Made by a program: the position numbers and the translations under genes. Of a DNA stretch of 13,035 nt, positions 751-13,035 are shown piece after piece (the stretch's first letter is position 1; each line of letters opens with the position of its first letter). The DNA lies in the NCBI GenBank assembly GCA_027021705.1, contig JALUTT010000051.1, forward strand, positions 1 to 13,035, in the 5' to 3' direction. The notes beneath the pieces are model-generated. The model was given only the letters and a program-made list of their open reading frames with translations, had not been told where the DNA came from and did no database searches. Source of the DNA: Anaerolineae bacterium. GTDB taxonomy: Bacteria > Chloroflexota > Anaerolineae > S140-20.

Positions 751-783
751 GGGTTGTGCGCCCCCGGACAAAACAAACAGAGC

Positions 784-789
784 AAGGAG
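784..789 (+). promoter_or_regulatory. Shine-Dalgarno AAGGAG for ATG 796
   Basis: AAGGAG lies 6 nt upstream of the in-frame ATG at 796. Confidence 0.75.
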
Positions 790-795
790 CAGCCA

Positions 796-2076
796 ATGGT
801 CCCACCGCCGCGCAGGGCCGAGACCCTGAAAGAAGCCTACGCCGTGCTGGACCCCGCCCGGCCCCTGGAGGGGGAGTGGCTGGACCGTTTCTACGCCGAG
901 CGCCCGCCGGAGGCCAGCCTGGATCCGCTGATTGACGAGTTGGCGGAGCTGGACCCCAGCGAGGCGGACAAGACCCTCTTCACCGGCCACCGGGGCAGCG
1001 GCAAGACGACGGAACTGGCCCGGCTGGAGCGGGCGCTTCAGGAGACCCACACCGTCGTCCGGCTCAACATCGAAGAACTCCTCAACCTGGGGGACGTCGA
1101 ATACACCGACCTGCTGGTCACCCTGGGGCTCCAAGTCTTCCGGGCCGCTCGGCGCAGCGGCATGGACCTGGGCGAGAGACGGCTCCAGGACCTGATCTTC
1201 TGGTACCGCACCCACATCCTGGAAGAGGACGAACAGCGACGCATCGAGAGCGAGGTGGGCGGAGAGCTGAGCGTCGCCGTTGCCAAGATCAGCGTCAAGC
1301 TGGCCACCGACGCCCCCCGTCGCGAGACCGCCCGCGCCGAGGCCCAGGCCCACCTCTCCGACCTGCTGGAACGGCTGAACGCCCTGCTGGAGAGGCTGCG
1401 CCGGACGACGGGCCGTCGCACGATGGTCATCGTGGATGGCCTGGACAAGCTGTACGACCTGAACCAGGTACGCGACCTCTTCTGCCAAGGGGCCAACGCG
1501 CTGCTGGAGCCCCAGTGCCGCATCGTCTACACCATTCCCCTGGCCCTCTACTACACCGATGACTTCCAGCAGGCGCGGATGGCCTTCCCCCGCACCTTCT
1601 CCCTGCCCAACATCAAGACGGAGGAGCGGGATGGGCGGCCCTGCCGGGAGGGGCGGGAAGCGCTGCGCCGCGTGCTGGAGAACCGCCTCCACCCCGACCT
1701 GGTGACACCGGAGGCGACCAAGCGGCTGATCACGCTGAGCGGGGGCCTGCTCAAGGAGTTGATCGCCCTGGCCCGCCAGGCGGTGCTCCGGGCCCGACGG
1801 CTGCGGGGTGACCGGGGTCCCGTCCAGGCCGACGACGTGGAGTACGCCGCCCGCCAAGTGCGCAACACCTACCGCGCCAGCCTGACGGAAGCCCAGTACC
1901 GGGAGCTGCAGCGCATCTACCGGGGGGAGCCCTTCGTCAACAGCCCGGTGAGCCGCTCCCTGCTGCACAACCTGAGCCTGCTGGAGTACGATGGCGGCGA
2001 CGCATGGTGGGCGATCCACCCCCTCGTGCGCCCGCTGGTGGAGGAGCGATCGGGTGGGATCCTTGAGCGTGCGTGA
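796..2076 (+). CDS. P-loop ATPase of AAA+/STAND-like type, about 426 aa, with no fused effector or repeat domain
   Basis: Walker A GHRGSGKTT (985), Walker B MVIVDGLDK, post-core SGGLLKEL helix, C-terminal LLHNLSLLEY...WWAIHPLV. Start moved from 754 to ATG 796 because of the RBS. Codon usage is GC3-rich. Confidence 0.9.
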   Translation: MVPPPRRAETLKEAYAVLDPARPLEGEWLDRFYAERPPEASLDPLIDELAELDPSEADKTLFTGHRGSGKTTELARLERALQETHTVVRLNIEELLNLGDVEYTDLLVTLGLQVFRAARRSGMDLGERRLQDLIFWYRTHILEEDEQRRIESEVGGELSVAVAKISVKLATDAPRRETARAEAQAHLSDLLERLNALLERLRRTTGRRTMVIVDGLDKLYDLNQVRDLFCQGANALLEPQCRIVYTIPLALYYTDDFQQARMAFPRTFSLPNIKTEERDGRPCREGREALRRVLENRLHPDLVTPEATKRLITLSGGLLKELIALARQAVLRARRLRGDRGPVQADDVEYAARQVRNTYRASLTEAQYRELQRIYRGEPFVNSPVSRSLLHNLSLLEYDGGDAWWAIHPLVRPLVEERSGGILERA

Positions 2077-3928
2077 ACCGACCTTCCTGGAGGAATTGGG
2101 CCTCGACCTGGCGCTGTTGAGCGATGCGCTGGACCTGCTAGAGGGCAGCGGCTTCCTCTTCGCCGTCTGCCGGGAGGGTGCGTTGCGCGATCGGCTGATG
2201 GACCAGGTGCGCGAGCACCTGGAGGCCGACGGTCGCCGCCTCGTCGTGGTCCCCTTCTCACCCCGGCAACCGGACCTGGCCGGCCAACTGGAGGCCCGGC
2301 TTCCCTCGGACGCCTCCTCGCCTCCGCCCGTCGTCTTCGTCCGGGTCGTGGGCCTGCCCGGCGACGACGAGGCGCGGGCCGCCCGGGCGTTGCGCACTCT
2401 CAACCTGCAGCGGGAGCGGCTGGCCCGGCTGGAACTGCCCATCGTCTTCTGGCTGGAGCAGAGCGCCCTGGGGCGGCTGATGGAGCACGCGGCCGACCTC
2501 TTCGCCGCCCGCAGCGGCATCTTCACCTTCGAGGCTCCCCGGCGCGAGGCGGCGGTCCCGTCGTCGGTGCAGACCAAAGTGGCCATCACCCTGCTGGACC
2601 GCTTCCACCGCTTCCTGCTTCCCCCTGACGAGCTGCGCCGGCGGGCTGCCCTCTACGAGCGGCGGCTGGAGCGGGAGCAGGCCGCCGAAGCGCCCAACTG
2701 GTCCCGCATCGCCCTCCTCTGCCGGGACCTGATCCACATCCATCGGGAGCTAGATGACCACGAGCGCGTCCAGGTCTTCCTGCTCCAGGAGATCGAAGCC
2801 TGGCGAGAGGCGTTGGCCGCCACCCGGCCGGAGGCGGCCCCTCTGGAGCACTCCCGGATCCAGCACAACCTGGGTCTTGCCTACCATAACCTAGCCCAAT
2901 TTCGTGACCGGGAGGCGAACTTAGAACGAGCTATCGCTGCCTACCAAGAAGCCCTCCGCTTCCGCACGCCCGACATCGCTCCCTTGGAATATGCAAGAAC
3001 CCACCACCGCCTAGGCACCGCCTACCGCCACCTGGCCCAGGTGCGGGAGCGAGAGGCCAACCTCCGGCGGGCTATCCAAGCCTACCGGGAAGCCCTCCGC
3101 TTCCACACCCCCGACACCGCCCCACTAGACTACGCAAGGACCCAGTACAGCTTGAGCATTGCCTATCGGAACCTGGCCTATGTCCGCGATCGAGAGGCGA
3201 ATCTGAAGCGAGCCATTACTGCCTGCCGAGAAGCCCTTCGCTTCCTGACGCCCGAGGCAGCCCCTCTGGAGTACGCCAGGGCCCGGCAAAACCTGGGTGC
3301 CGCCTACGCCGGCTTGGCTCAGGTCCGTGACCAAGAGACAAATCTGGAGCAGGCCATCTTTCTTTATGAAGAAGCTCTCCGGTTCCGCACGCCCGACATC
3401 GCTCCCCTGGAATATGCAAGAACTCGGCACCACCTAGGCACCGTCTATTGGCATCTGGCCCAGGTGCGGGAGCGGGAGGCGAACCTGGGGCGGGCCATCG
3501 AAGCCTTCCGGGAAGCCCTTCGCTTCCGCACGCCAGACCAGGCCCCGCTGGACTACGCGATGACCCAGTACAACCTGGGCCTCGCCTACGCCGACCTGGC
3601 CCAGGTGCGGGAGCGGGAGGCCAACCTCCGGCGGGCCATCGAAGCCTTCCGGGAAGCCCTCCGCTTCTGGACGCCGGACCAGGCCCCGCTGGACTACGCG
3701 ATGACCCAGTACAACCTGGGCCTCGCCTACGCCGACCTGGCCGAGGTACGGGATCAGGAGGCCAACCTCCGGCGGGCCATCCAAGCCTTCCAAGAGGCCC
3801 TCCGCTTCTGGACGCCGGAGACGGCCCCGCAGGACTATGCCGAGGCCAGGCGCCACCTGCTCCGGGTGAAAAGGGCACGGACCGCCCTCGTCCGCCAGCA
3901 GAACGAGGAGGAGTGCAACCCGACCTGA
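2054..3928 (+). CDS. Tetratricopeptide-repeat protein with an N-terminal alpha/beta domain (possible degenerate P-loop fold) and 7 full + 1 partial 47-aa TPR units
   Basis: Repeats of the form EALRFxTPxxAPL(E/D)YAxxxxxLGxAYxxLAQVRxREANLxRAIxAxx. N-terminal motifs GFLFAVC, VVFVRVVG, LNLQRERL, PIVFWL, AADLFAARSGIFTF. Start is uncertain: GTG 2054 (GAGGAG at 2041-2046), TTG 2063 or GTG 2069. All overlap the upstream stop at 2074-2076. Confidence 0.88.
   Translation: MGSLSVREPTFLEELGLDLALLSDALDLLEGSGFLFAVCREGALRDRLMDQVREHLEADGRRLVVVPFSPRQPDLAGQLEARLPSDASSPPPVVFVRVVGLPGDDEARAARALRTLNLQRERLARLELPIVFWLEQSALGRLMEHAADLFAARSGIFTFEAPRREAAVPSSVQTKVAITLLDRFHRFLLPPDELRRRAALYERRLEREQAAEAPNWSRIALLCRDLIHIHRELDDHERVQVFLLQEIEAWREALAATRPEAAPLEHSRIQHNLGLAYHNLAQFRDREANLERAIAAYQEALRFRTPDIAPLEYARTHHRLGTAYRHLAQVREREANLRRAIQAYREALRFHTPDTAPLDYARTQYSLSIAYRNLAYVRDREANLKRAITACREALRFLTPEAAPLEYARARQNLGAAYAGLAQVRDQETNLEQAIFLYEEALRFRTPDIAPLEYARTRHHLGTVYWHLAQVREREANLGRAIEAFREALRFRTPDQAPLDYAMTQYNLGLAYADLAQVREREANLRRAIEAFREALRFWTPDQAPLDYAMTQYNLGLAYADLAEVRDQEANLRRAIQAFQEALRFWTPETAPQDYAEARRHLLRVKRARTALVRQQNEEECNPT
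2807..3870 (+). repeat. Intragenic 141-bp tandem repeat array (TPR units)
   Basis: Unit starts at 2807, 2948, 3089, 3230, 3371, 3512, 3653 and 3794. 3536-3601 is identical to 3677-3742. Confidence 0.95.
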
Positions 3929-3960
3929 GCCACCCGGCCCGTCTCCCGGGCACCCTCCCA

Positions 3961-4068
3961 CTACGACGCTACCCGCTACGACGCTATCCGCTACGACGCT
4001 ATCCGCTACGACACTACGACGCTATGACGCTACAACGCTATGACGCCATGACACCATCCGCTATGACT
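3961..4068 (+). repeat. Degenerate 7/8-bp tandem repeat (CTACGACG / CTATCCG)
   Basis: ctacgacg ctacccg ctacgacg ctatccg ctacgacg ctatccg ctacgaca ctacgacg ctatgacg ctacaacg ctatgacg ccatgaca ccatccg ctatgact. Confidence 0.93.
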
Positions 4069-5067
4069 CCCCCCACCGTCGCCATCCTGACCACCGGCGG
4101 CACCATCGCTATGCGCCGGGACGATGAGGCCGGCGGGGCGGTCCCCCTCCTCCGGGCCGCCGACTTCGCCGCCGCCCTCCCCCCCGGCCTGGCGACGCCG
4201 GAGATGGACGAGATCGTCAACCTCCCCAGCTCCCACTTCACCGTGGAGACGCTGCTGGAGATCCGCCGCCACGTGCTGGCCGCCCTGGCCCGCCCCGAGG
4301 TGGCCGGCGTCGTCATCACCCACGGCACCGACGTGATGGAGGAGACCGCCTACCTGCTCGACCTGACGGTCCCCGGCGAGAAACCGATCCTCCTGACGGG
4401 AGCGATGCGCACCGCCTCCCAGTTGGGCTACGACGGCTATGCGAATCTGGCCGCCGCCGTCCGCGTCGCCGTCGAGCCGGCCGCCCGGGGGCTGGGCGCG
4501 GCCATCGTCTTCAACGACGAGGTCCACGCCGCCCGCTGGGTCACCAAAGGCCACACCCTCTCCACCGCCACCTTCATCTCCCCCGGCTGGGGCCCCATCG
4601 GGCGGGTGGAGGGGGATCGGGTGATCATCGCCCGCCGGCTCCCCCGCGCCCCCCTGGTGAGCGACCGGCTGGAGCCCCGCGTCGCCCTCATCAAGCTGGC
4701 CGTGGGGATGACGCCGGACTGCCTGGAGGACGCCGTCCGGCGGGGGGTGCGGGGCATCGTCCTGGAGGGGCTGGGCGGGGGGCGGATCCCCCCCTGGTGG
4801 CTGGAGCCGGTCCGGCGGGCCATCGAGCAGGGCGTGGCCGTCGTCTTGGCCTCCCGCTGCCCCGGTGGCCGGGTCTGGGACGCCTACGGCTACCCGGGAG
4901 CGGTGCGGGATTGGCTGGCGATGGGCTGTCTGCCGGCCGAAGGGCTCAACGGTCAGAAGGCCCGCATCAAGCTGATGGTCGTTCTGGGCGCGGCCCAATC
5001 CCTTGACGAAGTCGCCGCGTTATGGAAGAGTACCGGAGCGTGTTCTCCCGAAGGGGCCGGTTGCTGA
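4063..5067 (+). CDS. L-asparaginase (asparaginase/glutaminase family), cytoplasmic
   Basis: ILTTGGTIAM and VVITHGTDVMEETAY signature motifs, plus TGAMR, KGHT, GIVLEGLGGG and LNGQKARIKLM. No signal peptide. Start at ATG 4063 (alternatives 4024 and 4048); the 3448-4062 extension in the ORF track is a shadow frame. Confidence 0.93.
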   Translation: MTPPTVAILTTGGTIAMRRDDEAGGAVPLLRAADFAAALPPGLATPEMDEIVNLPSSHFTVETLLEIRRHVLAALARPEVAGVVITHGTDVMEETAYLLDLTVPGEKPILLTGAMRTASQLGYDGYANLAAAVRVAVEPAARGLGAAIVFNDEVHAARWVTKGHTLSTATFISPGWGPIGRVEGDRVIIARRLPRAPLVSDRLEPRVALIKLAVGMTPDCLEDAVRRGVRGIVLEGLGGGRIPPWWLEPVRRAIEQGVAVVLASRCPGGRVWDAYGYPGAVRDWLAMGCLPAEGLNGQKARIKLMVVLGAAQSLDEVAALWKSTGACSPEGAGC

Positions 5068-5099
5068 AGGCCGGGCTTCAAAGAGCAGGCTGGCTGCCT

Positions 5100-5441
5100 A
5101 TGCGACTCCCTAACGCTGACCTGGCATACGTCCCGCCCAGAAAACTGACGGATTACTTGCTATCAGAGACCCATGCGGTGGGGAAGGCAAAAGCCAAGTT
5201 CTTCCGTAAAATGGGGTTCAAGGCACAGCGCATTGAGGTGCTAAGGCGAGCTCTCCTTGAAATTGCCCAGACTGGAGAGGTCAAGGAAGTTATCGAGACA
5301 CCCTATGGCAAGAAATACATCGTGGATGGGGTGTTACACACACCTTCAGGCAGGCAAGCACGAATTCGAACGGTATGGATTGTAGAAACCGGGCAGGAGA
5401 GCCCCCGGTTTGTCACAGCCTATCCGTGGGAAGGGGGATAG
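5100..5441 (+). CDS. DUF6883-like protein (putative toxin-like domain)
   Basis: Recognised pattern MRLPNA...KLTDYLLS..H..GKAKAKFF..MGF...TPYGKKYIVDG.L.TPSGR...IRTVWI......PRFVTAYP. Start at ATG 5100. A/T-richer than the flanks. Confidence 0.8.
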   Translation: MRLPNADLAYVPPRKLTDYLLSETHAVGKAKAKFFRKMGFKAQRIEVLRRALLEIAQTGEVKEVIETPYGKKYIVDGVLHTPSGRQARIRTVWIVETGQESPRFVTAYPWEGG

Positions 5442-5713: not shown

Positions 5714-6163
5714 ATGTTCCAACGGATCGTCGTCGCCATTGACGGTTCGGCGCACAGCCATCGGGCGCTGGAGTACGCCCGGAGCCTGGCGGAATGCATG
5801 GGCGCGAGCCTCTGGCTTGTCCACGCCTTCCCTTCCACCTCCGACCTCCTGGGGATGGAGGAGCACGCCCGGCTGGTCGCCCGGCGCATGGGCGCCGGTC
5901 AGGCCATCCTGGACGAAGCCCGGGCCAAGCTGGGCGAGACCGATCTGGAGGTGCACGAGGAACTGCTGGAAGGGCCGGCCGCCGAGGCCATCCTGCGGGT
6001 GGCCAAAGTGCGGAACGCCGATCTGATCGTGATGGGGACACGGGGGCTGGGCGCGCTGGGTGGCCTTCTCCTCGGCAGCGTGAGCAACAAGGTGATCCAG
6101 AAGTCCCCCTGTCCGGTGATGCTGGTTCGCGCCGATGGGGAAACCGGTGCCCCTCAATCCTGA
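5714..6163 (+). CDS. Universal stress protein (Usp family), nucleotide-binding type
   Basis: MFQRIVVAIDGS...ALEYA and ADLIVMGTRGLGALGGLLLGSVSNKVIQKSPCPVMLV with an intact G-2x-G-9x-GS motif. RBS GGAGGAG at 5699-5705. Confidence 0.95.
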   Translation: MFQRIVVAIDGSAHSHRALEYARSLAECMGASLWLVHAFPSTSDLLGMEEHARLVARRMGAGQAILDEARAKLGETDLEVHEELLEGPAAEAILRVAKVRNADLIVMGTRGLGALGGLLLGSVSNKVIQKSPCPVMLVRADGETGAPQS

Positions 6164-9100
6164 AGCGCTTCCTCGATTGCGCCGCTACCTGCCCGATCGC
6201 CTCTGGGCCCGCTGGCAGCAGGGCGACACGGCGCCCGGCCTGGCCCACCTCCAGGCGGTCCTGCGGGCCGTGCTGACCGGCCTGCCCCGCCGCGTCGCCC
6301 AGGCGCGGCTGGCCGATCCGAAGGGGCCTGCCGTCGCCGGCGCCTTCGCCCAGGCCACCCTCCTCTTCGCCGACATCGCCGGCTTCACCGCTATGTCGGA
6401 GCGGCTCGGCCAACTGGGCCGCGAAGGGGCCGAGGTGATCACCGGCATCGTCAACGCCTACTTCGCCGCTATGCTGGAGATCATCGCCCGCCACGGCGGC
6501 GACCTCCTCAAGTTCGGCGGCGACGCCCTCCTCGTCGCCTTCGAGGGCGACGAGGGAGCCGTGCGAGGCTGTCGGGCTGCCCTGGAGATGCAACAGGCGA
6601 TGGACCGCTTCGCCGTGGTCGAAACGCCCCAGGGCACCTTCCACCTGCAGATGACGGCAGGGCTGGGCACAGGCCCCCTCTTCCTCGCCAGCCTCGGCTC
6701 CCCCGACCGGCTGGAGTTCGCCGTGATGGGGCCGGTCCTGGAACAGATGGCCCGCGCCGAGGACCTGGCCCGGGCCGGTGAGGTCGTCGTGGACCGGGCC
6801 ACCCGCGAGGCCGCCGGCGCGACGCTCGCCGTCCAGGACGCGCCCCCCGGCTTCTACCGCCTCACCGCCGTCGCCCCCCCACCCTTCCCCCTCGCCAGCC
6901 CACCCCCGCCTTGGCCCGACCTGCCCGCCGACGCCCGCTGGCTGCTCGAACGGCTCGACGCCCTCACCCCCTACCTCCCGGCCGGCGTCCTGGAGCGCAT
7001 CGTCGCCTCCCCCGGCGGGTGGATGATCGAAGGGGAGCACCGCCTGGTCACCGTCCTCTTCGCCAACTTCTACGGCATCAACGCCATCATCCAGGCCCTC
7101 GGCCCCGACCGGGCCGACGAGATCACGGCGATCCTCAACGACCACTTCACGGTGATGCGCGACATCGTCCACCGCTATGGTGGCATCGTCAACAAAGTGG
7201 ACACCTACGCCGTGGGCTACCGCATCATGGCCCTCTTCGGTGCCCCCATCGCCCACGAGGACGACCCCGCCCGCGCCGTCCACGCCGCCCTGGAGATGCA
7301 AGAGGCGATGAGGGCCTTCACCAGCCTCGCCACCAGCGGCGGGCGCTTCTCCCTCAAGCAGCGGATCGGTATCAATACCGGCTACGTCTTCGCCGGCACC
7401 CTGGGCTCCGCCCTGCGCCAGGAGTACTCGGTGATGGGCGACGAGGTCAACCTCACCTCCCGCCTGATGGGGGTCGCCGCCGAGGGGCAGGTGCTCATCA
7501 GCCAGGCCACCGCCCGGCGGGTGGCCGGGCTCTTCGAGTGGCGGGAGCAGAGGCCGGTGAAGGTCAAGGGCAAACGGCTGCCCGTGCGCACCTATTGGGT
7601 CCGTCGAGGTGTCGTGGGCCGGGTGGAGTGGGCCACCTTCCGGGGTGGCTTCTTCGGACGCCGGGAGGAGATGGCGAAGGCCCAGGCGCTGGTGGAGGCG
7701 GCCCTGAACGGTCAGGGGGCCGTGCTCGACATCGCCGGCGACCCGGGCGTGGGCAAGACGCGCCTGGTGGCCGAACTGAGCCTCTACGCCGGCCGGCGGG
7801 GCATGACCACCCTGCGCGGGGCCGCCGTCTCCTACGGACGCAGCCTCCCCTACCTGCCCTGGACCCCCATCCTGCGGGCGCTGTTGGGGATCACCGAGGG
7901 GAACGGGGAGGGCCGGAGGCAGCGGCGGGTCCGGCTCATCGCCGCCCTGGAGGAGGCCGGCCTCGCCGACTGGGCTCCCATCGTCGGCGAGGTCCTGGGC
8001 ATCGAGATCGCCGAGACCCCCCTCACGGCGTCGCTGGACCCCCGACTGCGCCAGCAGCGCTTCTTCGACGTCGTCCTCCAGTTGATCCAGCGGCGGGCCG
8101 AGCGCTCCCCGCTGCTGCTGGTGCTGGACGACGTGCAGTGGGCCGATGCCACCTCCCTGGACCTGATCGCCTACGTGGCCCGCAATGTCGCCACCTCCCC
8201 CCTCCTGCTCGTCGTCCTCCACCGCCCCGACCTGGAGGCCCCACCCTGGCAGGCCGTACCAAGCTGTCACCGGTTGCACCTGGAGGAGCTGGACGAAGAG
8301 GCCAGCCTGGCCCTGGCCCGCTCGGTTCTAGACGGCGACCTCTCCCCGCCCCTCCGCCGCCTCATCCTCGACCGGGCCCAGGGCAACCCCCTCTTCGTGG
8401 AGGAGGTGGCCCGGACGCTGAAGGAGTCGGGAGCCCTCCGGCGGGAGCCGGGGCCTGAGGGGAGGCCGCGCTGGACCCTCGCCGGCGAGGTCACCGGCGT
8501 CCAGGTGCCCACCACGCTGACCGGCCTGATCATGGGCCGTCTGGACCGGCTGGAGACGACGAACCGCCGCCTGCTCCAGGTGGCCTCGGTGATCGGCGTC
8601 GCCTTTCCCATCTCGGTGCTGGCCCGCATCTACCCCTACGACGATCTGGACGGGACGCTGGAGACCCGGCTGGCGGAGATGAGCCGCTTCGACCTGGTCG
8701 CCTTCGCTCCGCCCGACGAGTACACCTTCCGCCAGACGCTCACCCAGGAGGTGGCCTACGAGAGCCTCCCCTTCGCCCGGCGGCGGGAGCTCCACGTGCG
8801 GGTGGGGGAGGACCTGGAGCGCCGCTACGCGGGGGCGCTGGCCGAGCACTACGGCGTGCTGGCCCACCACTTCGAGCGGGGGCAGGTTTTCGAGAAGGCG
8901 TTCACCTACCTGGTCCGGGCCGGCGACCGGGCCCGGGCCGAGTTCGCCAATGAGGCGGCCCTGGACCACTACCGGCGTGCCCTGCGGATCGCCACCGAGC
9001 AGATCCCCCACGTTCCCCCGGTCCAGGCCCGGGTTCCCGACGTGCTGGAGGCGATGGGCGACATCTGCCTGCTGGTGGGCCGCTACGCCGAAGCCATCGA

Positions 9101-10301
9101 GCGCTTTCGGCAGGCGGCGGCCCATCCCCACGTTGCGGCCCGGCGGCGGGGAGACCTGCTGCGCAAGATCGCCCAGGCCCACGAGCGGCAGGGGCAGTAC
9201 GATGAGGCGCTGGACCGCCTGGACGAGGGCCGTCGAGTGCTCTCGGCGCGGGAGGAGGACTGGCGGAGTTCCGCGATGGCCCGCATCTACAACCTGATCG
9301 GGTGGGTGCGCATGCGCCGGGGGGAGATGGAGAAGGCGGTCGAGGCCTGTCGGCAGGGGCTGGCGATCCTGGCGGAGCTGCGGCGGGACCCGGCCCTCCT
9401 GCGGGACGAGGCGGACCTGTACAACACCCTGGGGGCGGTCTACGTCGGTCAGGGCAACTACTCCCAGGCCGCCGAGGTCTACCGGCGCAGCACCGAACTG
9501 CGGCAACAGGCCGGTGACCTGCCCGGCCTAGCCCGTTCCTACAACAACTTGGCCCGCATCGCCTGGGTCCAGGGCGACTTGGCAGGGGCGGAGGACTACC
9601 TCCGGCGCAGCATGGAGATCAGCCGGCGGATCGGCGACAACTACATGGTGGCCCTGGGCTACAACAACCTGGGCGCGGTCGCCTACACCCTCGGTCAGGT
9701 GGATCGGGCGCTGGAGCAGTACCGGGCCGCCCTGGCGCTGCGCCGGCGCATCGGCGACAGCTACGGGGCAGCCCAGACCTCCAGCAACATCGGCGAGGCC
9801 TACCTGCGGCTGGGCCGGTACGCCGAGGCCCGCCGCCATCTGGAGGAAGCCGCCCGCACCTTCGAGGCCATCCAGAGCGAGGGTGAGCTGCCCGAGGTCT
9901 ACTGCCTCCTGGCCCAGGTGGAGCTGGCCCAAGAGGACCCCGCCGCCGCCTTGGAGTACGCCGACCGGGCCCGCCGGATCGCCGAGGCCACGGGCAACCC
10001 CGAGTGGCAGGGCATCGCGGAGCGGGTCCTGGCCGAAGGGCAGATCCGGCGGGGGGAGAGCGCCCAAGCCCGCCGGGCCCTGGAGGCCAGCATCGCCCTC
10101 CTGGACCGGGCGGAGAACCCGCTGGAACTGGCCCGCAGCCACGAAGCGCTGGGCCGGCTCCTGCTGGAGGAGGCCGGCCAGGAAGGACGCGCCCGGGAGC
10201 ACCTGCGCCGGGCCGTGGAGCTCTTCACCGCCGCCGGGGCGGAGGAGGAAGCGGAAGAGGTGCGGAGAATCGCGACCCTCCCCTCTCCTCCACCCGGATG
10301 A
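6135..10301 (+). CDS. Tandem class III adenylate/guanylate cyclase domains + STAND (AAA_16-type) ATPase + TPR repeats; soluble-adenylyl-cyclase-like
   Basis: Cyclase 1: LLFADIAGFTAMSE...KFGGDALL. Cyclase 2: VTVLFANFYG...GIVNKVD...IGINTG.VFAG...EYSVMGDEVNLTSRLM. FFGRREE, Walker A GDPGVGKT (7737), Walker B LLLVLDDVQWAD, AQGNPLFVEE, C-terminal YNNLG-type TPRs. The start could alternatively be GTG 6147. Confidence 0.93.
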   Translation: MGKPVPLNPEALPRLRRYLPDRLWARWQQGDTAPGLAHLQAVLRAVLTGLPRRVAQARLADPKGPAVAGAFAQATLLFADIAGFTAMSERLGQLGREGAEVITGIVNAYFAAMLEIIARHGGDLLKFGGDALLVAFEGDEGAVRGCRAALEMQQAMDRFAVVETPQGTFHLQMTAGLGTGPLFLASLGSPDRLEFAVMGPVLEQMARAEDLARAGEVVVDRATREAAGATLAVQDAPPGFYRLTAVAPPPFPLASPPPPWPDLPADARWLLERLDALTPYLPAGVLERIVASPGGWMIEGEHRLVTVLFANFYGINAIIQALGPDRADEITAILNDHFTVMRDIVHRYGGIVNKVDTYAVGYRIMALFGAPIAHEDDPARAVHAALEMQEAMRAFTSLATSGGRFSLKQRIGINTGYVFAGTLGSALRQEYSVMGDEVNLTSRLMGVAAEGQVLISQATARRVAGLFEWREQRPVKVKGKRLPVRTYWVRRGVVGRVEWATFRGGFFGRREEMAKAQALVEAALNGQGAVLDIAGDPGVGKTRLVAELSLYAGRRGMTTLRGAAVSYGRSLPYLPWTPILRALLGITEGNGEGRRQRRVRLIAALEEAGLADWAPIVGEVLGIEIAETPLTASLDPRLRQQRFFDVVLQLIQRRAERSPLLLVLDDVQWADATSLDLIAYVARNVATSPLLLVVLHRPDLEAPPWQAVPSCHRLHLEELDEEASLALARSVLDGDLSPPLRRLILDRAQGNPLFVEEVARTLKESGALRREPGPEGRPRWTLAGEVTGVQVPTTLTGLIMGRLDRLETTNRRLLQVASVIGVAFPISVLARIYPYDDLDGTLETRLAEMSRFDLVAFAPPDEYTFRQTLTQEVAYESLPFARRRELHVRVGEDLERRYAGALAEHYGVLAHHFERGQVFEKAFTYLVRAGDRARAEFANEAALDHYRRALRIATEQIPHVPPVQARVPDVLEAMGDICLLVGRYAEAIERFRQAAAHPHVAARRRGDLLRKIAQAHERQGQYDEALDRLDEGRRVLSAREEDWRSSAMARIYNLIGWVRMRRGEMEKAVEACRQGLAILAELRRDPALLRDEADLYNTLGAVYVGQGNYSQAAEVYRRSTELRQQAGDLPGLARSYNNLARIAWVQGDLAGAEDYLRRSMEISRRIGDNYMVALGYNNLGAVAYTLGQVDRALEQYRAALALRRRIGDSYGAAQTSSNIGEAYLRLGRYAEARRHLEEAARTFEAIQSEGELPEVYCLLAQVELAQEDPAAALEYADRARRIAEATGNPEWQGIAERVLAEGQIRRGESAQARRALEASIALLDRAENPLELARSHEALGRLLLEEAGQEGRAREHLRRAVELFTAAGAEEEAEEVRRIATLPSPPPG

Positions 10302-10432
10302 GCGCCCGGCGCCGCCCTGCGCCGGCAACAGGGGAGACGGCCGGGGACGCTGCGTCGGCGCAGGGCGGGGCCCGCCTTTGGGAGGAGACCGAGGCCGCCG
10401 GCATCGAGCAAGGAGCAGATCGGAGGGCAGCC

Positions 10433-13035
10433 GTGCTTTCGCCCGAGGAGATCGAAGCCATCCTGAACCGCATCGCCGCTAGGGCCCACACCGAGGCCGA
10501 CCTGGTCGCGCTGCGCGGCCACCTGCTGCTCGACCCGGCCCGAAAGGTGGTGCAGGTCGGGAAGTACAACGTCTCCATCGAGCAGGGGCAAGACGTTTAT
10601 ATCGGCGACCGCATCGTCCAGGGGGCCAACGCGGAGACCTTGAGAGAGGCGCTGCAACAGCTCCTGGGCGAGGTCCGTCTCCGGCCTGGCGCCCCCTTCC
10701 AGGCCCCACCCCTGCCGTCCTATTTCGTTCCCCGCCCCGAGGTGAGTGACGGGCTCAAGGCCCAACTCCTGACCGGGAACGGCCACCCGGCCGGCGTCCT
10801 CGTCGTCAGCGCCATCCACGGCTTGGGCGGCATCGGCAAGTCCACCCTGGCCGCCGCCCTGGCCCGCGACCCCGACGTGCTGGCCCGCTTCCCCGACGGC
10901 GTCCTCTGGGCCACCCTGGGCCGGCAGCCGGACCTCCTCTCCCTGCTCTCCGGCTGGATCCAGGCCCTGGGCGATCGCGACTTCCGCCCCACCACGGCGG
11001 AGGCGGCCACCGCCCACCTGTGCACCCTGCTCCACGACAAGGCAGCCCTGCTGGTGGTGGACGACGCCTGGGAGTCGAACCACGTCCGACCCTTCCTCGC
11101 CGGAGGCGATCGGTGCCGGGTGCTGGTCACCACCCGCGAGGCGGTCATCGCCAGAACGGTGGGGGCCGACCTCTACAACCTGGACGTAATGACCCCGGAC
11201 CAGGCCCTCGCCCTGCTGGAGGGACGGTTGAGGCGGGACCTAACGGGGGAGGAGTGGGCCTCGGCGCGGGAACTGGCCCGCATCGTGGGCTACCTGCCGC
11301 TGGCGTTGGAGCTGGCGGCGGCCCAGGTCGCCGATGGCGTGCCGTGGGACGAGTTGATCGAGGAACTGAACGCCGAGATCGCCCACCTGGAGGCCCTGGA
11401 GCCGCCGGAGGCGGCGGAGGTGCGGGACGAACGGGAGCGGAAGCGCCTGAGCCTCAATGCCTCCTTCCACCTGAGCCTGCGGCGGCTGCCGGAGGGCAAG
11501 CGCGACTCCTTCGCCTGGCTGGGGGTGCTGCCGGAGGACGTGCGCCTCACGCCGGAGATGATGGCGACGGTGTGGGCGCTGGGGGTGCGGGAGGCGCGGG
11601 ACAGGCTGCGCTACCTGCGGAACAAGGCGCTGCTCCTGCCCGGCGCGCCCTTGCCCGACGGCACCCCCACCTATCGCCTGCACGACCTCCTCCACGACCT
11701 GGCCCGCCGCCTGCTGACCGCTCCGCCGGAGCCGGTCCGGGAGGGCGACCTGCCGGGGCTGGGGTTGACACTGCCGGAGGCCCACGCCCGCCTCCTGGAG
11801 CGGTACCAGGCGCGGACGCGGGACGGCCTGTGGTACACCCTCCCCGACGACGGCTACGTCCACGCTCACCTGACCTGGCACCTGGAGCAGGCGGGGCAGG
11901 TGGAAGCGATCCACGGCCTGCTGCGGGAGGAGACGCCAGAGGGACGCAACGGCTGGTACGAAGCGCGAGAGCGGCTGGGCCAGACGGCCGGCTACCTGGC
12001 CGACGTGGAGCGGACCTGGCGGCTGGCGGAAGAGGCCCTCCAATGCCGCTACGCCCTCATCGTCGCCTCCCTAAACGCCTTGGCCAAGAACATCCCCCCA
12101 GTCCTGATGTCCGCGCTGGTGAAAGCGGGCCTCTGGACCCCGGCGCAGGGGCTGGCCTACGCCCGGCAGGTGCCGGGCGCCGAGCAGCGGGCCGCAGCCC
12201 TGGCCGGCCTGGCCCCCCACCTGCCCCAAGACCTGCTGGCCCAGGCCCTGGCCGCCGCCCGCGAGATCCGGGATGCCGAAGCCCGCGCCAAAGCGCTGAC
12301 CGGCCTGGCCCCCCACCTGCCCCAAGACTTGCTGGCCCAGGCCCTGGCCGCCGCCCGCGAGATCCGAGATGCCGATGACCGCGCCGAAGCGCTGACCGGC
12401 CTGGCACCCCACCTGCCCCAAGACCTGCTGGCCGAGGCCCTGGCCGCCGCCCGCGAGATTGAGAATGCAAAGTACCGCGCCAAAGCGCTGACCGGCCTGG
12501 CCCCCCACCTGCCCCAAGACCTGCTGGCCCAGACCCTGGCCGCCGCCAGGGAGATCAGGGATGGGGCACTGCGGACCGAGGCACTGAGAGAGCTAGCTCC
12601 TCACCTGCCGGCACCTCTGCAAGACCAGGTCCTGCAAGAGGCCCTGGCCGCCGCCCGCGAGATTGAGAGTGGATGGCAGCGCGCCGAAGCGCTGACCGGC
12701 CTGGCCCCCCACCTGCCCCAAGACCTGCTGGCCGAGGCCCTGGCCGCCGCCCGCGAGATTGAGAATGCAAAGTACCGCGCCAAAGCGCTGACCGGCCTGG
12801 CCCCCCACCTGCCGGCACCTCTGCAAGACCAGGTCCTGCAAGAGGCCCTGGCCGCCGCCCGCGAGATTGAGAGTGGATGGCAGCGCGCCGAAGCGCTGAC
12901 CGGCCTGGCCCCCCACCTGCCCCAAGACCTGCTGGCCCAGACCCTGGCCGCCGCCCGCGAGATTGAGAGTGGATGGCAGCGCGCCGAAGCGCTGACCGGC
13001 CTGGCCCCCCACCTGCCCGAGGAACGACGCCCGGA
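10433..13035 (+). CDS. NLR-like protein, 3'-truncated by the window: EAD10-like N-terminal domain, NB-ARC ATPase, APAF-1-like helical region, C-terminal 32/36-aa helical repeats
   Basis: Not in the ORF track because there is no stop before the edge. Manual translation from GTG 10433 (GGAGG at 10422-10426): MLSPEEIEAILNRIAARAHTEADLVALR...VVQVGKYNVSIEQGQDVYIGDRIVQG...PFQAPPLPSYFVPRPE...AIHGLGGIGKSTLA (Walker A, 10820)...FPDGVLW...LLVVDDAW (Walker B)...RVLVTTR...GYLPLALE...YRLHDLLHD. An upstream in-frame ATG exists at 10298. Confidence 0.9.
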   Translation, partial: MLSPEEIEAILNRIAARAHTEADLVALRGHLLLDPARKVVQVGKYNVSIEQGQDVYIGDRIVQGANAETLREALQQLLGEVRLRPGAPFQAPPLPSYFVPRPEVSDGLKAQLLTGNGHPAGVLVVSAIHGLGGIGKSTLAAALARDPDVLARFPDGVLWATLGRQPDLLSLLSGWIQALGDRDFRPTTAEAATAHLCTLLHDKAALLVVDDAWESNHVRPFLAGGDRCRVLVTTREAVIARTVGADLYNLDVMTPDQALALLEGRLRRDLTGEEWASARELARIVGYLPLALELAAAQVADGVPWDELIEELNAEIAHLEALEPPEAAEVRDERERKRLSLNASFHLSLRRLPEGKRDSFAWLGVLPEDVRLTPEMMATVWALGVREARDRLRYLRNKALLLPGAPLPDGTPTYRLHDLLHDLARRLLTAPPEPVREGDLPGLGLTLPEAHARLLERYQARTRDGLWYTLPDDGYVHAHLTWHLEQAGQVEAIHGLLREETPEGRNGWYEARERLGQTAGYLADVERTWRLAEEALQCRYALIVASLNALAKNIPPVLMSALVKAGLWTPAQGLAYARQVPGAEQRAAALAGLAPHLPQDLLAQALAAAREIRDAEARAKALTGLAPHLPQDLLAQALAAAREIRDADDRAEALTGLAPHLPQDLLAEALAAAREIENAKYRAKALTGLAPHLPQDLLAQTLAAAREIRDGALRTEALRELAPHLPAPLQDQVLQEALAAAREIESGWQRAEALTGLAPHLPQDLLAEALAAAREIENAKYRAKALTGLAPHLPAPLQDQVLQEALAAAREIESGWQRAEALTGLAPHLPQDLLAQTLAAAREIESGWQRAEALTGLAPHLPEERRP
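12197..13020 (+). repeat. Intragenic 96/108-bp tandem repeats, near-identical at DNA level
   Basis: Unit starts at 12197, 12293, 12389, 12485, 12581, 12689, 12785, 12893 and 12989. Consensus ALTGLAPHLPQDLLAxALAAAREIxxxxxRAx. Confidence 0.96.

Follow-up and report, generated by a model that had tools for sequence, protein, structure and literature searches.

We identified the front two thirds of a gene for an NLR-like STAND ATPase at the 3’ edge of the window (the whole stretch of DNA analysed, 13,035 nt, which is the entire contig C51). Its product carries an effector-associated domain 10 (EAD10) at the N-terminus, placed right before an NB-ARC domain, and an array of helical repeats. The most likely task of the small EAD10 head is to dock a killer protein encoded by a separate gene. 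Relatives of this NLR hint at the docking mode: the C-terminal tail of their partner proteins holds only the beta core of EAD10 (profile positions about 28-64), and not the whole domain. The combination of EAD10 and NB-ARC is an already described architecture, to which this protein adds one more receptor.

Gene extent and domain architecture

The initial annotation had described an open frame of at least 867 codons from position 10,433, and this was confirmed as a reading from a GTG codon, open to the contig edge (Table 1). The stop-free frame could be read from 9887 to 13033 and runs past the 3’ edge, and the gene is truncated because the contig breaks inside the repeat array. We rejected as the start an ATG at 10298, in the same frame and overlapping the stop codon of the gene upstream, and preferred the GTG because a Shine-Dalgarno-like site precedes it and the EAD10 profile sets in at residue 1-3 when translation is read from there. 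The upstream neighbour (6135-10301) encodes two cyclase domains, an AAA_16 domain and TPR; the NLR gene begins 131 nt after it on the same strand, and no terminator-like site was found between the two.

The remainder of the gene is probably located on contigs C119 and C183, judging from sequence shared with the repeats. The 31-mers in common with the repeats of the window numbered 295 of 872 in C119, 166 of 800 in C183 and 14 in C162, with none in any other contig; no exact end overlap of at least 15 nt was found between the 3’ end of C51 and any contig, and the linkage to C119 and C183 is made by shared 31-mers only. C119 consists of repeats, and C183 of repeats plus a tail that can be aligned, up to and including the final RWWP, to the C-terminal end of a full-length orthologue, that of locus L011. 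This conserved tail probably belongs to the gene in the window. C183 joins contig C173 via an overlap of 127 nt, and the subsequent genes are convergent if C183 holds the 3’ end. The suggestion of the initial annotation that a partner might be encoded just downstream was not supported: the contig ends inside the gene, the genes that would follow beyond the join of C183 and C173 are convergent, and the partners of the relatives lie directly upstream.

Table 1. Coordinates of the features identified at the 3’ end of the window, with the basis for each.
Feature	Position (nt)	Strand	Basis or remark
Shine-Dalgarno-like GGAGG	10422..10426	+	6 nt upstream of GTG; read from sequence
EAD10-NB-ARC-repeat STAND/NLR-like gene, 5’ part, 867 codons	10433..13035	+	3’ end open at contig edge
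EAD10 (effector-associated domain 10), aa 3-76	10439..10660	+	Pfam PF19954
Conserved EAD10 beta core QVGKYNVSIEQGQDVYIGD, aa 41-59	10553..10609	+	column conservation, partner-tail alignment
Linker QAPPLPSYFVPRPEV, aa 90-104, module junction	10700..10744	+	paralogue/orthologue alignment start
NB-ARC, aa 125-314	10805..11374	+	Pfam PF00931, 76.2 bits
P-loop GLGGIGKST, aa 130-138	10820-10846	+	motif reading
Walker B LLVVDDAW, aa 206-213	11048-11071	+	motif reading
VTTR, aa 232-235	11126-11137	+	motif reading
GYLPLAL, aa 286-292	11288-11308	+	motif reading
LHD (MHD-equivalent), aa 416-418	11678-11686	+	beyond NB-ARC Pfam span
Apaf-1-like helical domain (HD2), aa 447-497	11771..11923	+	Pfam APAF1_C
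Tandem 32/36-aa helical repeats	12191..13018	+	Tandem Repeats Finder; array cut by contig edge

All five elements of the canonical NB-ARC motif series that had been read from the frame were found, and the domain itself passed the curated cut-off of Pfam (E 3.1e-21). Its best relatives of solved structure were AfsR (E 9.4e-26) and Apaf-1 (E 1.5e-17), and the helical domain behind it matched APAF1_C just above its cut-off of 22.8 bits (23.7 bits, E 4.9e-5). The helical repeats expected after the NB-ARC were likewise borne out, with a period of 96 nt, 8.4 copies and 78% matches, and resolve into six units of 32 aa, two of 36 aa and a cut ninth. The units follow the pattern APHLP...AAAREI-xxxxx-RAxALTGL, with variation mostly in the five residues following REI, and matched no Pfam repeat family. 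The protein contains the three parts of an NLR-like architecture, an N-terminal adaptor, a central NOD and C-terminal repeats, with the C-terminus incomplete at the contig edge. As the initial annotation had anticipated, we found no enzymatic domain in the 867 visible aa or in the part of C183 that probably encodes the C-terminus, and no family of PADLOC-DB v2 matched the NLR at E <= 0.01.

The EAD10 head and gene pairs in related loci

The first 75 or so residues, which the initial annotation had assigned to EAD10, matched the Pfam profile well above its curated cut-off (77.2 bits against 24.1, E 9.8e-22 on the 867 aa, aa 3-76 covering positions 3-76 of 77), and scored 84.3 bits when only residues 1-100 were searched and 82.3 bits, at the same coordinates, in a scan of the whole genome. 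The head is present in one copy, at the terminus, on a core STAND NTPase, as in the EAD10 definition of Kaur et al. 2020. An AF2 model of the domain contained two helices, five short strands and one helix (mean pLDDT 71.7), and a fold search with this model returned noise (best Z 5.3). Across 156 EAD10 domains, columns of the beta core were highly conserved (Q 0.97, G 0.96, K 0.83, Y 0.84, G 0.90, G 0.98 and D 0.96), and the core shows a strand-glycine periodicity. No row for Pfam RHIM was obtained at E <= 10 on the head or on the protein C181b described below, and a distant likeness is possible, given that the HMMER filters drop most weak matches.

The junction between the head and the rest of the protein coincides with the linker. 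The paralogue on contig C92 aligns with the NLR only from aa 90 onward, and most of the 75 loci related to the NB-ARC core match it only from aa 81-92 onward. EAD10 was found in all 112 of the relatives of the head that were tested, and 34 of the 112 EAD10 proteins carried a STAND NTPase, by a hand tally (8 NB-ARC, 19 NACHT, 2 nSTAND1 and 5 other P-loop).

Among the 75 loci, EAD10 was kept only in L006 (72% identical) and L011 (51%). Both contain a same-strand upstream ORF, encoding a small helical protein or a caspase, whose C-terminus matches only positions 29/34-58/64 of the EAD10 profile (E 3.6e-6 each), and the directly upstream slot holds an effector in L005, L006, L011 and L105. In 12 of 70 further EAD10 loci, a core tail was found within 11 residues of the stop of a neighbouring gene. 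Ten of the 12 neighbours were upstream on the same strand and 2 were divergent; by family, 9 were Peptidase_C14 (caspase), 2 CHAT and 1 a small helical family. Tail-bearing effectors were present in the relatives L006, L011/L106 and L105 and in 10 further loci. Across 13 adjacent pairs, tail and head were 39-64% identical over 23 columns, and cognate combinations were only slightly more similar than non-cognate ones (48.2% versus 44.5%), with a permutation p of 0.001 that is overstated because the loci are related. The expectation that the NLR signals through another EAD10-bearing protein was borne out only in part: its relatives lie beside tail-bearing effectors, and the tails hold only the beta core and not the whole EAD10.

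We favour a model, which we consider probable, in which the NLR recruits through its EAD10 heads a separately encoded effector with an EAD10-core tail. The hypervariable array of 32/36-aa repeats would recognise an invader- or stress-derived ligand, and the NB-ARC would then exchange nucleotide and oligomerise. The clustered EAD10 heads would recruit and activate a separate effector ending in the EAD10 core (Q-x-G-K-Y-x-x-N-I ... I-G-D), by a contact that may be strand pairing or amyloid-like stacking, with cell death or defence as the presumed outcome. In related loci the effector encoded directly upstream is either a caspase/CHAT protease or a small helical protein that probably acts on membranes. 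AF2 predicts for the head, with moderate confidence, a compact alpha+beta fold, which suits an adaptor that works as a folded domain no less than it suits an amyloid motif.

Candidate partners in the same genome

We found no adjacent effector for the NLR: the upstream slot holds the unrelated cyclase-ATPase-TPR gene, whose product was rejected as a motif-coupled partner, having no EAD10-like tail. A custom EAD10 profile run over 67,536 six-frame ORFs recovered only the NLR itself, two proteins on contig C181 (C181a and C181b) and a non-significant match on C144. C181a is the sole other match above the cut-off (37-40 bits), but represents the N-terminus of another STAND ATPase and not an effector, and C181b matches the core only. 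The outcome that the initial annotation had named as refuting its reading, no EAD match and no second protein with a similar segment, was not observed.

C181b is an effector-like protein of 180 aa, unlinked to the NLR gene, and has the only such tail in the genome. Its EAD10 match scores 20.7 bits, below the Pfam cut-off, with E 4.3e-6 for the custom profile. Against the core of the NLR it agrees at 8 of 23 positions, and this identity of 35% is lower than in any of the 13 adjacent pairs. C181b is clearly homologous to the upstream protein of L006 and adjoins an NB-ARC gene of its own, the N-terminus of whose product resembles the tail by eye and is not detected by the custom profile. In the structural model, aa 1-108 form a helical bundle (block pLDDT mostly 88-93) and the tail has pLDDT <50. 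The helical domain had no match in Pfam, and the C181b model retrieved nothing from the PDB at E <= 0.001 with Foldseek. VIA wide reached a best Z of 5.3, which is noise for models of this helical kind, and its noise-level rows included a bacterial death-like domain (Z 3.8) and the CC domain of a plant resistosome (Z 4.3). When the alignment of the small proteins was searched as a profile against the PDB, the best E was 0.2. HetE-N is carried by 26% and 12% of the members of two atlas clusters near C181b, which we note as a lead only. A complex prediction for the EAD10 head (aa 1-90) and the C181b tail (aa 108-175), run without controls, scored 0.00 and speaks neither for nor against binding.

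Because the upstream slot is unrelated and the sole tail protein is unlinked, the NLR would either borrow C181b or have lost its cognate effector. We consider it unlikely that the NLR is an orphan, acquired or rearranged without its cognate effector, and inert, decaying or dependent on a tail from another element. The unrelated gene in the slot that holds an effector in L005, L006, L011 and L105 would fit such an origin, as would the low identity of the C181b core. EAD10 is also sporadic: it was found in 0 of 40 relatives, and only 4 of 401 genomes in the phylum, that of the NLR included, have a match above the cut-off. The gene may thus have been imported recently, without its partner. However, the frame is intact over 867 codons with all NB-ARC motifs kept and a good ribosome-binding site, the repeats are nearly identical to one another, as in actively diversifying sensors, and about 5% of the genome is unassembled. 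With 183 contigs, 94.9% completeness and 4.5% contamination, the assembly has the look of a binned genome, and the placement of C51 and C181 in the same genome therefore depends on binning.

Comparison with known systems

The portions of Kaur 2020 (PMC7159879) on which we draw propose EADs as homotypic coupling adaptors and name EAD10 among the effector-recruiting ones, in agreement with the initial annotation. Tables of Kaur, Burroughs, Iyer and Aravind (PMC7159879, PMC8195603) contain the architectures 'EAD10+NACHT+FGS' (Chloroflexi) and 'CASPASE+EAD10', the latter in the supplement of Kaur 2021 (PMC8195603); the term 'EAD10' is absent from those supplements of Kaur 2020 (PMC7159879) that were searched. 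The NLR shares with the EAD10 STANDs of these NTP-dependent conflict systems an N-terminal EAD10 above the Pfam cut-off, a core STAND ATPase and a repeat sensor. In contrast, it has no adjacent second EAD10 gene, and the partner in its closest relatives holds only about 30 EAD10 residues as a C-terminal tail, an arrangement that we did not find stated in the portions of text consulted from Kaur 2020 and 2021 (PMC7159879, PMC8195603).

The partner might alternatively be a complete EAD10-effector fusion encoded in the unassembled part of the genome, with two folded EAD10 domains binding each other, which is exactly the principle in the cited portions of Kaur 2020 (PMC7159879). Many of the 70 further loci contain at least two neighbouring genes with a full N-terminal EAD10, and the compact AF2 model is consistent with such a coupling. 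We regard it as quite improbable, since the assembled genome contains no such protein, with the STAND ATPase C181a as the only other full-type match, and the two closest EAD10-bearing orthologues (L006 and L011) use tail-only partners. It is very improbable that the oligomer-clustered head is itself the output, for example as a toxic filament or scaffold with no separate effector: 60 of the 112 EAD10 proteins carry no other Pfam domain (hand tally) and the NLR has no adjacent partner, but EAD10 is without enzymatic features in the portions of Kaur 2020 (PMC7159879) used here, and caspase, CHAT and small helical proteins with tails recur beside EAD10 receptors.

Recruitment of a tail-bearing effector, the reading that we favour, has a possible parallel in amyloid signalling. 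The parts of Dyrka et al. (10.1101/2020.01.06.895854) that we used describe NLRs coupled to Bell-domain effectors through short bacterial amyloid signalling sequences (BASS1-10) that both partners share, and Bab/Agp amyloid signalling defends E. coli against phage T5, according to the portion consulted of a second report (10.1101/2024.11.07.622273). The gene layout in the relatives mirrors that of these pairs: the effector has a short strand-prone motif at its C-terminus and the NLR one at its N-terminus, the genes are adjacent with the effector upstream, and the effector is either a small helical protein whose first helix is hydrophobic or a CHAT/caspase protein. The identity within the EAD10 pairs (39-64%) compares with 43-56% for BASS pairs, and the EAD10 core contains phi-Q-phi-G, as in the G-phi-Q-phi-G signature of BASS3, RHIM and PP (both from the same parts of 10.1101/2020.01.06.895854). 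Unlike BASS, the element on the NLR side lies within a 77-residue alpha+beta domain and is not a bare motif of 20-25 residues, and Foldseek, VIA wide and PDB profile searches revealed no homology between the small helical domain and Bell/Bab. For amyloid formation there are indirect hints in the low pLDDT of the C181b tail and the strand-glycine periodicity of the core. An adjacent pair of the BASS type was not found at C51, where the upstream gene has no motif and the downstream side is unassembled.

Tentatively, and with less confidence than we place in recruitment as such, EAD10 might be more than a folded homotypic adaptor, and its nearly invariant beta core (phi-Q-phi-G-K-Y-N-phi-N-I-G-x-G-x-D-I-x-I-G-D) might be a RHIM/BASS-like stacking motif, standing alone on the disordered C-terminal tails of effectors. 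C181b carries in tandem a motif A, which also heads at least 8 other STAND proteins in this genome, and a motif B, the EAD10 core. On this reading it would be a single small helical executioner, a death switch shared by several NLR sensors, that of the window included, whose signals it integrates. If this were true, the EAD adaptors of Aravind and the amyloid signalling motifs of Saupe would, for EAD10, be the same device.

The NLR resembles Apaf-1, CED-4 and plant NLRs in its NB-ARC with P-loop, Walker B, GLPL-like and LHD motifs and in its Apaf-1-type helical domain, and in some relatives the N-terminal adaptor may, by analogy, recruit a caspase, as CARD does in Apaf-1. It differs from these proteins in having EAD10 as the adaptor, and not CARD, CC or TIR, and a sensor built from 32/36-aa helical repeats that match no Pfam family, and not from WD40 or LRR. 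With the antiphage STANDs Avs and bNACHT it shares a general STAND sensor logic, although it matches no PADLOC model at the threshold given above. The NB-ARC region is also like that of AfsR, a SARP-NB-ARC-TPR regulator of Streptomyces, its best relative both of solved structure and in NCBIfam. We give hardly any credence to a housekeeping regulator of this kind, perhaps acting in nucleotide signalling with the cyclase-ATPase-TPR gene close upstream on the same strand, and not in conflict or cell death, as the AfsR match is limited to the NB-ARC region and far under the family cut-off (101 against 1430 bits), there is no SARP DNA-binding domain, the repeats are different, the head is a conflict-system adaptor, and paralogues with the same repeats bear trypsin-like or other effector-type heads.

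The genome shows one organism shuffling heads (EAD10, trypsin, helical and coiled coil) among paralogous STAND proteins with a common hypervariable repeat sensor. L006, L105 and L011 are compact two-gene pairs of a small helical protein or caspase with an EAD10-NLR; their partners hold only about 30 EAD10 residues, and the long-proposed coupling by EADs is therefore testable with peptides and point mutants. The same pairs also permit a test of amyloid-like templating by EAD10, as shown for Bab/Agp.

The EAD10-NLR gene and its probable 3' end

The window spans all 13,035 nt of contig C51, which belongs to a 5.19-Mb assembly of 183 contigs (completeness 94.9%, contamination 4.5%). We identified a plus-strand frame without a stop running from 9887 to its last base. 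GTG 10433 was taken as the start because GGAGG precedes it by 6 nt and because, counted from it, the EAD10 profile match sets in at residue 1-3; an in-frame ATG at 10298, overlapping the preceding gene's stop codon, was set aside. Translation from this GTG gives the 867 residues quoted in the initial annotation, confirming its open frame of 867 codons, and contains every NB-ARC motif listed there; EAD10 was also correctly named. Curated models assign the gene to the EAD10 and NB-ARC families (see table). After residue 593 we found six helical repeats of 32 aa, two of 36 aa and a ninth that is cut, varying mostly in the five residues that follow 'REI' and matching no Pfam repeat family.

Features of the window and of the loci compared with it
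Feature	Location	Strand	Evidence or remark
ORF, weak AAA_16	754-2076	+	domain search
ORF, TPR repeats	1991-3928	+	domain search
Asparaginase	about 4078-5067 (ORF 3448-5067)		domain match
DUF6883 protein	5022-5441	+	120.6 bits
Cyclase gene, 1,388 aa: two adenylate/guanylate cyclase domains, AAA_16, long TPR array	6135-10301	+	
EAD10-NLR	10433-13035	+	open at contig end
EAD10 of the NLR	aa 3-76 (profile positions 3-76 of 77)		Pfam 77.2 bits, cut-off 24.1
NB-ARC of the NLR	aa 125-314		Pfam 76.2 bits
APAF1_C of the NLR	aa 447-497		Pfam 23.7 bits, cut-off 22.8
C181 gene row	L080:5998-18715		seven genes on one strand
C181b, 180 aa	C181:61224-61778 = L080:15182-15721	-	
C120 protein, 161 aa, helical	C120:92074-92556	-	begins MDPIT, motif A end
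C175 protein, 273 aa, trypsin-like	C175:2287-3105	-	Cys-rich end, motif A end
C36 all-in-one protein	C36:3-2672	-	helical domain, motif A, NACHT-like P-loop region; runs off contig
Cyanobacterial caspases	L101:3056-4111; L104:1644-2801		tails with motif A, then EAD10 core

Elsewhere in the window, the first two ORFs overlap by 86 nt in different frames, and are either one frameshifted STAND-TPR gene or two genes. The true asparaginase start is probably later than that of its ORF, since the domain begins only at residue 211; the end of this ORF is overlapped by the DUF6883 ORF by 46 nt.

The contig ends within the repeat array, and this end showed no exact overlap with other contig ends. Repeat 31-mers were shared with C119 (1,516 nt, entirely repeat; 295 of 872), C183 (1,005 nt; 166 of 800) and C162 (14), and with no other contig. 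The C183 repeats run into a tail of about 70 aa, ending in RWWP and a stop, that aligns to the C-terminus of the full-length orthologue at locus L011, and a 127-nt overlap joins C183 to C173, where the genes are convergent. Thus, the organism most likely carries the gene intact, with no co-directional gene after it; the joins and the repeat copy number are provisional. An effector just downstream, raised as a possibility in the initial annotation, is not supported, as the probable C183-C173 join puts convergent genes there.

The same repeat type and RWWP-ending tail, for which no Pfam family was found, also stand at the C-terminal end of three complete STAND proteins whose heads are different: a short Gly/Asp-rich motif with a NACHT-like domain (C162, L082), a long helical head (C77, L083), and a Trypsin_2 head, placing a trypsin-like peptidase in the same polypeptide (C73, L084). 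An NB-ARC core paralogue on C92 (52% identity over 811 aa) begins to align right at the QAPPLP linker; its head is a coiled coil and its repeats are of another kind. Heads and sensors are thus swapped as modules.

EAD10 and its gene pairs in other genomes

The first 90 aa, run through a full HMMER search, matched 305 of 1.84 billion representatives at E <= 0.001. EAD10 was present in all 112 sequences scanned for domains from the best 150 of these 305 (omitting 35 under 140 aa and the three longest). By hand tally, the accompanying domain was NACHT (19), NB-ARC (8), FGE-sulfatase (4), nSTAND1 (2), CHASE2 (2), or GUN4, bDLD3, CHAT, LRR, TPR and HTH_7 (one each); six had WD40 only, five other P-loop matches only, and 60 had EAD10 alone. 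The eight NB-ARC proteins indicate that EAD10 with NB-ARC is an already existing architecture. EAD10 is rare in this lineage, exceeding the cut-off in four of 401 genomes of the phylum, this one included, and in none of 40 relatives (three from its own family, 37 from its class).

The NB-ARC core has many relatives among Cyanobacteria and Chloroflexota, in most cases 50-60% identical, and the majority match only from residues 81-92 on. EAD10 is kept in only two of 75 such loci, L006 (72%) and L011 (51%). In each, the gene is immediately preceded by a same-strand ORF whose C-terminal match is limited to the beta half of the EAD10 profile; this ORF encodes a caspase at L011, and at L006 a small helical protein clearly homologous to C181b, a 180-aa protein of the present genome. 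A member of the small helical family, bearing another tail, likewise lies upstream of L005, an NB-ARC orthologue (73%) that lacks EAD10.

Among 70 further EAD10 loci, many contain at least two genes with a full N-terminal EAD10, which is classical coupling. In 12, a neighbouring gene ends, within 11 residues of its stop, in a match confined to profile positions about 28-64; ten of these neighbours are upstream on the same strand and two divergent, and Pfam identified Peptidase_C14 in nine, CHAT in two and nothing in one (L105, small helical family). In alignment, the tails fall on the EAD10 segment with the highest conservation. Head-to-tail identity was 39-64% (mean 48.2%) in 13 adjacent pairs, against 44.5% in non-cognate pairs; the permutation p of 0.001 overstates the significance, as several of the loci are closely related. 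The two cyanobacterial caspases with motif A before the core show that this cassette is not bound to one effector type. The same tandem order as in the C181b tail, but N-terminal, was seen in P0148, a 135-aa head-search representative with a helix, motif A and EAD10 core.

Candidate partners in the same genome

Besides C51, Pfam EAD10 matched three places: C181a, a 1,197-aa STAND ATPase (37-40 bits, profile positions 1-55); C144, an NB-ARC and WD40 protein (23.8 bits, just below the cut-off); and the C-terminus of C181b (20.7-21.3 bits, positions 33-63). A custom profile of 156 domains, run unfiltered on all 67,536 six-frame ORFs of at least 40 aa, matched C51 (106 bits), C181a (E 1.8e-7), C181b (E 4.3e-6) and, non-significantly, C144, and no others. 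Neither profile found an enzyme with a full EAD10 in the assembled genome.

In the large C181b family (718 matches at E <= 0.001, 'hypothetical' wherever named), a conserved helical domain, whose first helix is hydrophobic, is joined to a modular tail. Motif A alone is found in members near 141 aa, motif A and the EAD10 core in those near 170 aa, and some members include a KTSC domain. AF2 modelled C181b itself as a helical bundle over residues 1-108 (pLDDT per block mostly 88-93) and a tail below 50; Foldseek against PDB, a wide VIA search and a PDB profile search assigned no fold to the bundle, and Atlas yielded only a lead towards HetE-N. On C36, this domain (E 1.6e-5) is fused to a NACHT-like ATPase, as expected of a putative effector module; the C-terminus there looks FGE-sulfatase-like by eye.

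The C181b tail comprises, in tandem, motif A (G-E-R-S-V-A-I-G-G-...-I-V-T-G-D) and motif B, the EAD10 core. By regular expression, motif A also lies near the heads of the C144, C181a, C162, C73, C77, C36, C88 and C117 proteins and at the C-terminus of the effector-like C120 and C175 proteins. These last two point to a more extensive network built on motif A among the genome's STAND proteins. Motif B was confined to C181b.

C181b follows an Eco57I-like methylase and precedes a 382-aa NB-ARC protein, three TPR proteins and C181a. The NB-ARC protein has no repeats and the TPR proteins are three separate genes; together they look like a split NLR, or one broken by frameshifts. The first 30 residues of the NB-ARC protein resemble the C181b tail by eye, undetected by the custom profile, and C181b thus has an adjacent receptor of its own. 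Its core agrees with that of the window gene at 8/23 positions (35%), below every adjacent pair.

Proposed working and the nature of the EAD10 head

We propose that clustered EAD10 heads of an NLR-like sensor would recruit an effector through its core-motif tail, and that this copy probably borrows C181b or lacks an effector of its own. Ligand, oligomerisation, binding and outcome in this scheme are inferred from NB-ARC biology and the literature. Its working would resemble that of the conflict systems coupled by EADs described by Kaur et al., and in its relatives also that of the Bell/BASS-NLR pairs reported by Dyrka et al. (10.1101/2020.01.06.895854) and of Bab/Agp (10.1101/2024.11.07.622273). 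The window gene differs from a BASS pair, because no effector is adjacent. That it is an orphan receptor is rather unlikely, and a classical full-EAD10 partner within the unassembled 5% of the genome is less likely still. A self-contained head is highly improbable; so, to the same degree, is an AfsR-like regulator tied to the cyclase gene, which lies directly upstream on the same strand, its stop 131 nt before the NLR and no terminator-like site between them.

AF2 models the head (mean pLDDT 71.7) as a pair of helices followed by five short strands and a third helix, agreeing with the 'mixed alpha+beta' given in Kaur 2020 (PMC7159879), and a fold search matched no solved fold. The beta core includes phi-Q-phi-G, and Dyrka et al. 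describe G-phi-Q-phi-G in their text as the signature of BASS3, RHIM and PP motifs; the Pfam RHIM model did not match the head, and the likeness is a lead, not membership. 'CASPASE+EAD10' and 'EAD10+NACHT+FGS' are already listed in a Kaur 2021 supplement (PMC8195603). Text searches for EAD10 turned up only the Kaur papers and the Bab/Agp preprint, where it is mentioned a single time, as a TGP-linked domain. In the passages of these sources that were consulted, we found no statement of tail-only EAD10 or of likeness to amyloid motifs. The EAD10-NLR belongs to a known class, and adds a testable side hypothesis, that of a tail-only EAD10 core that may resemble amyloid motifs.
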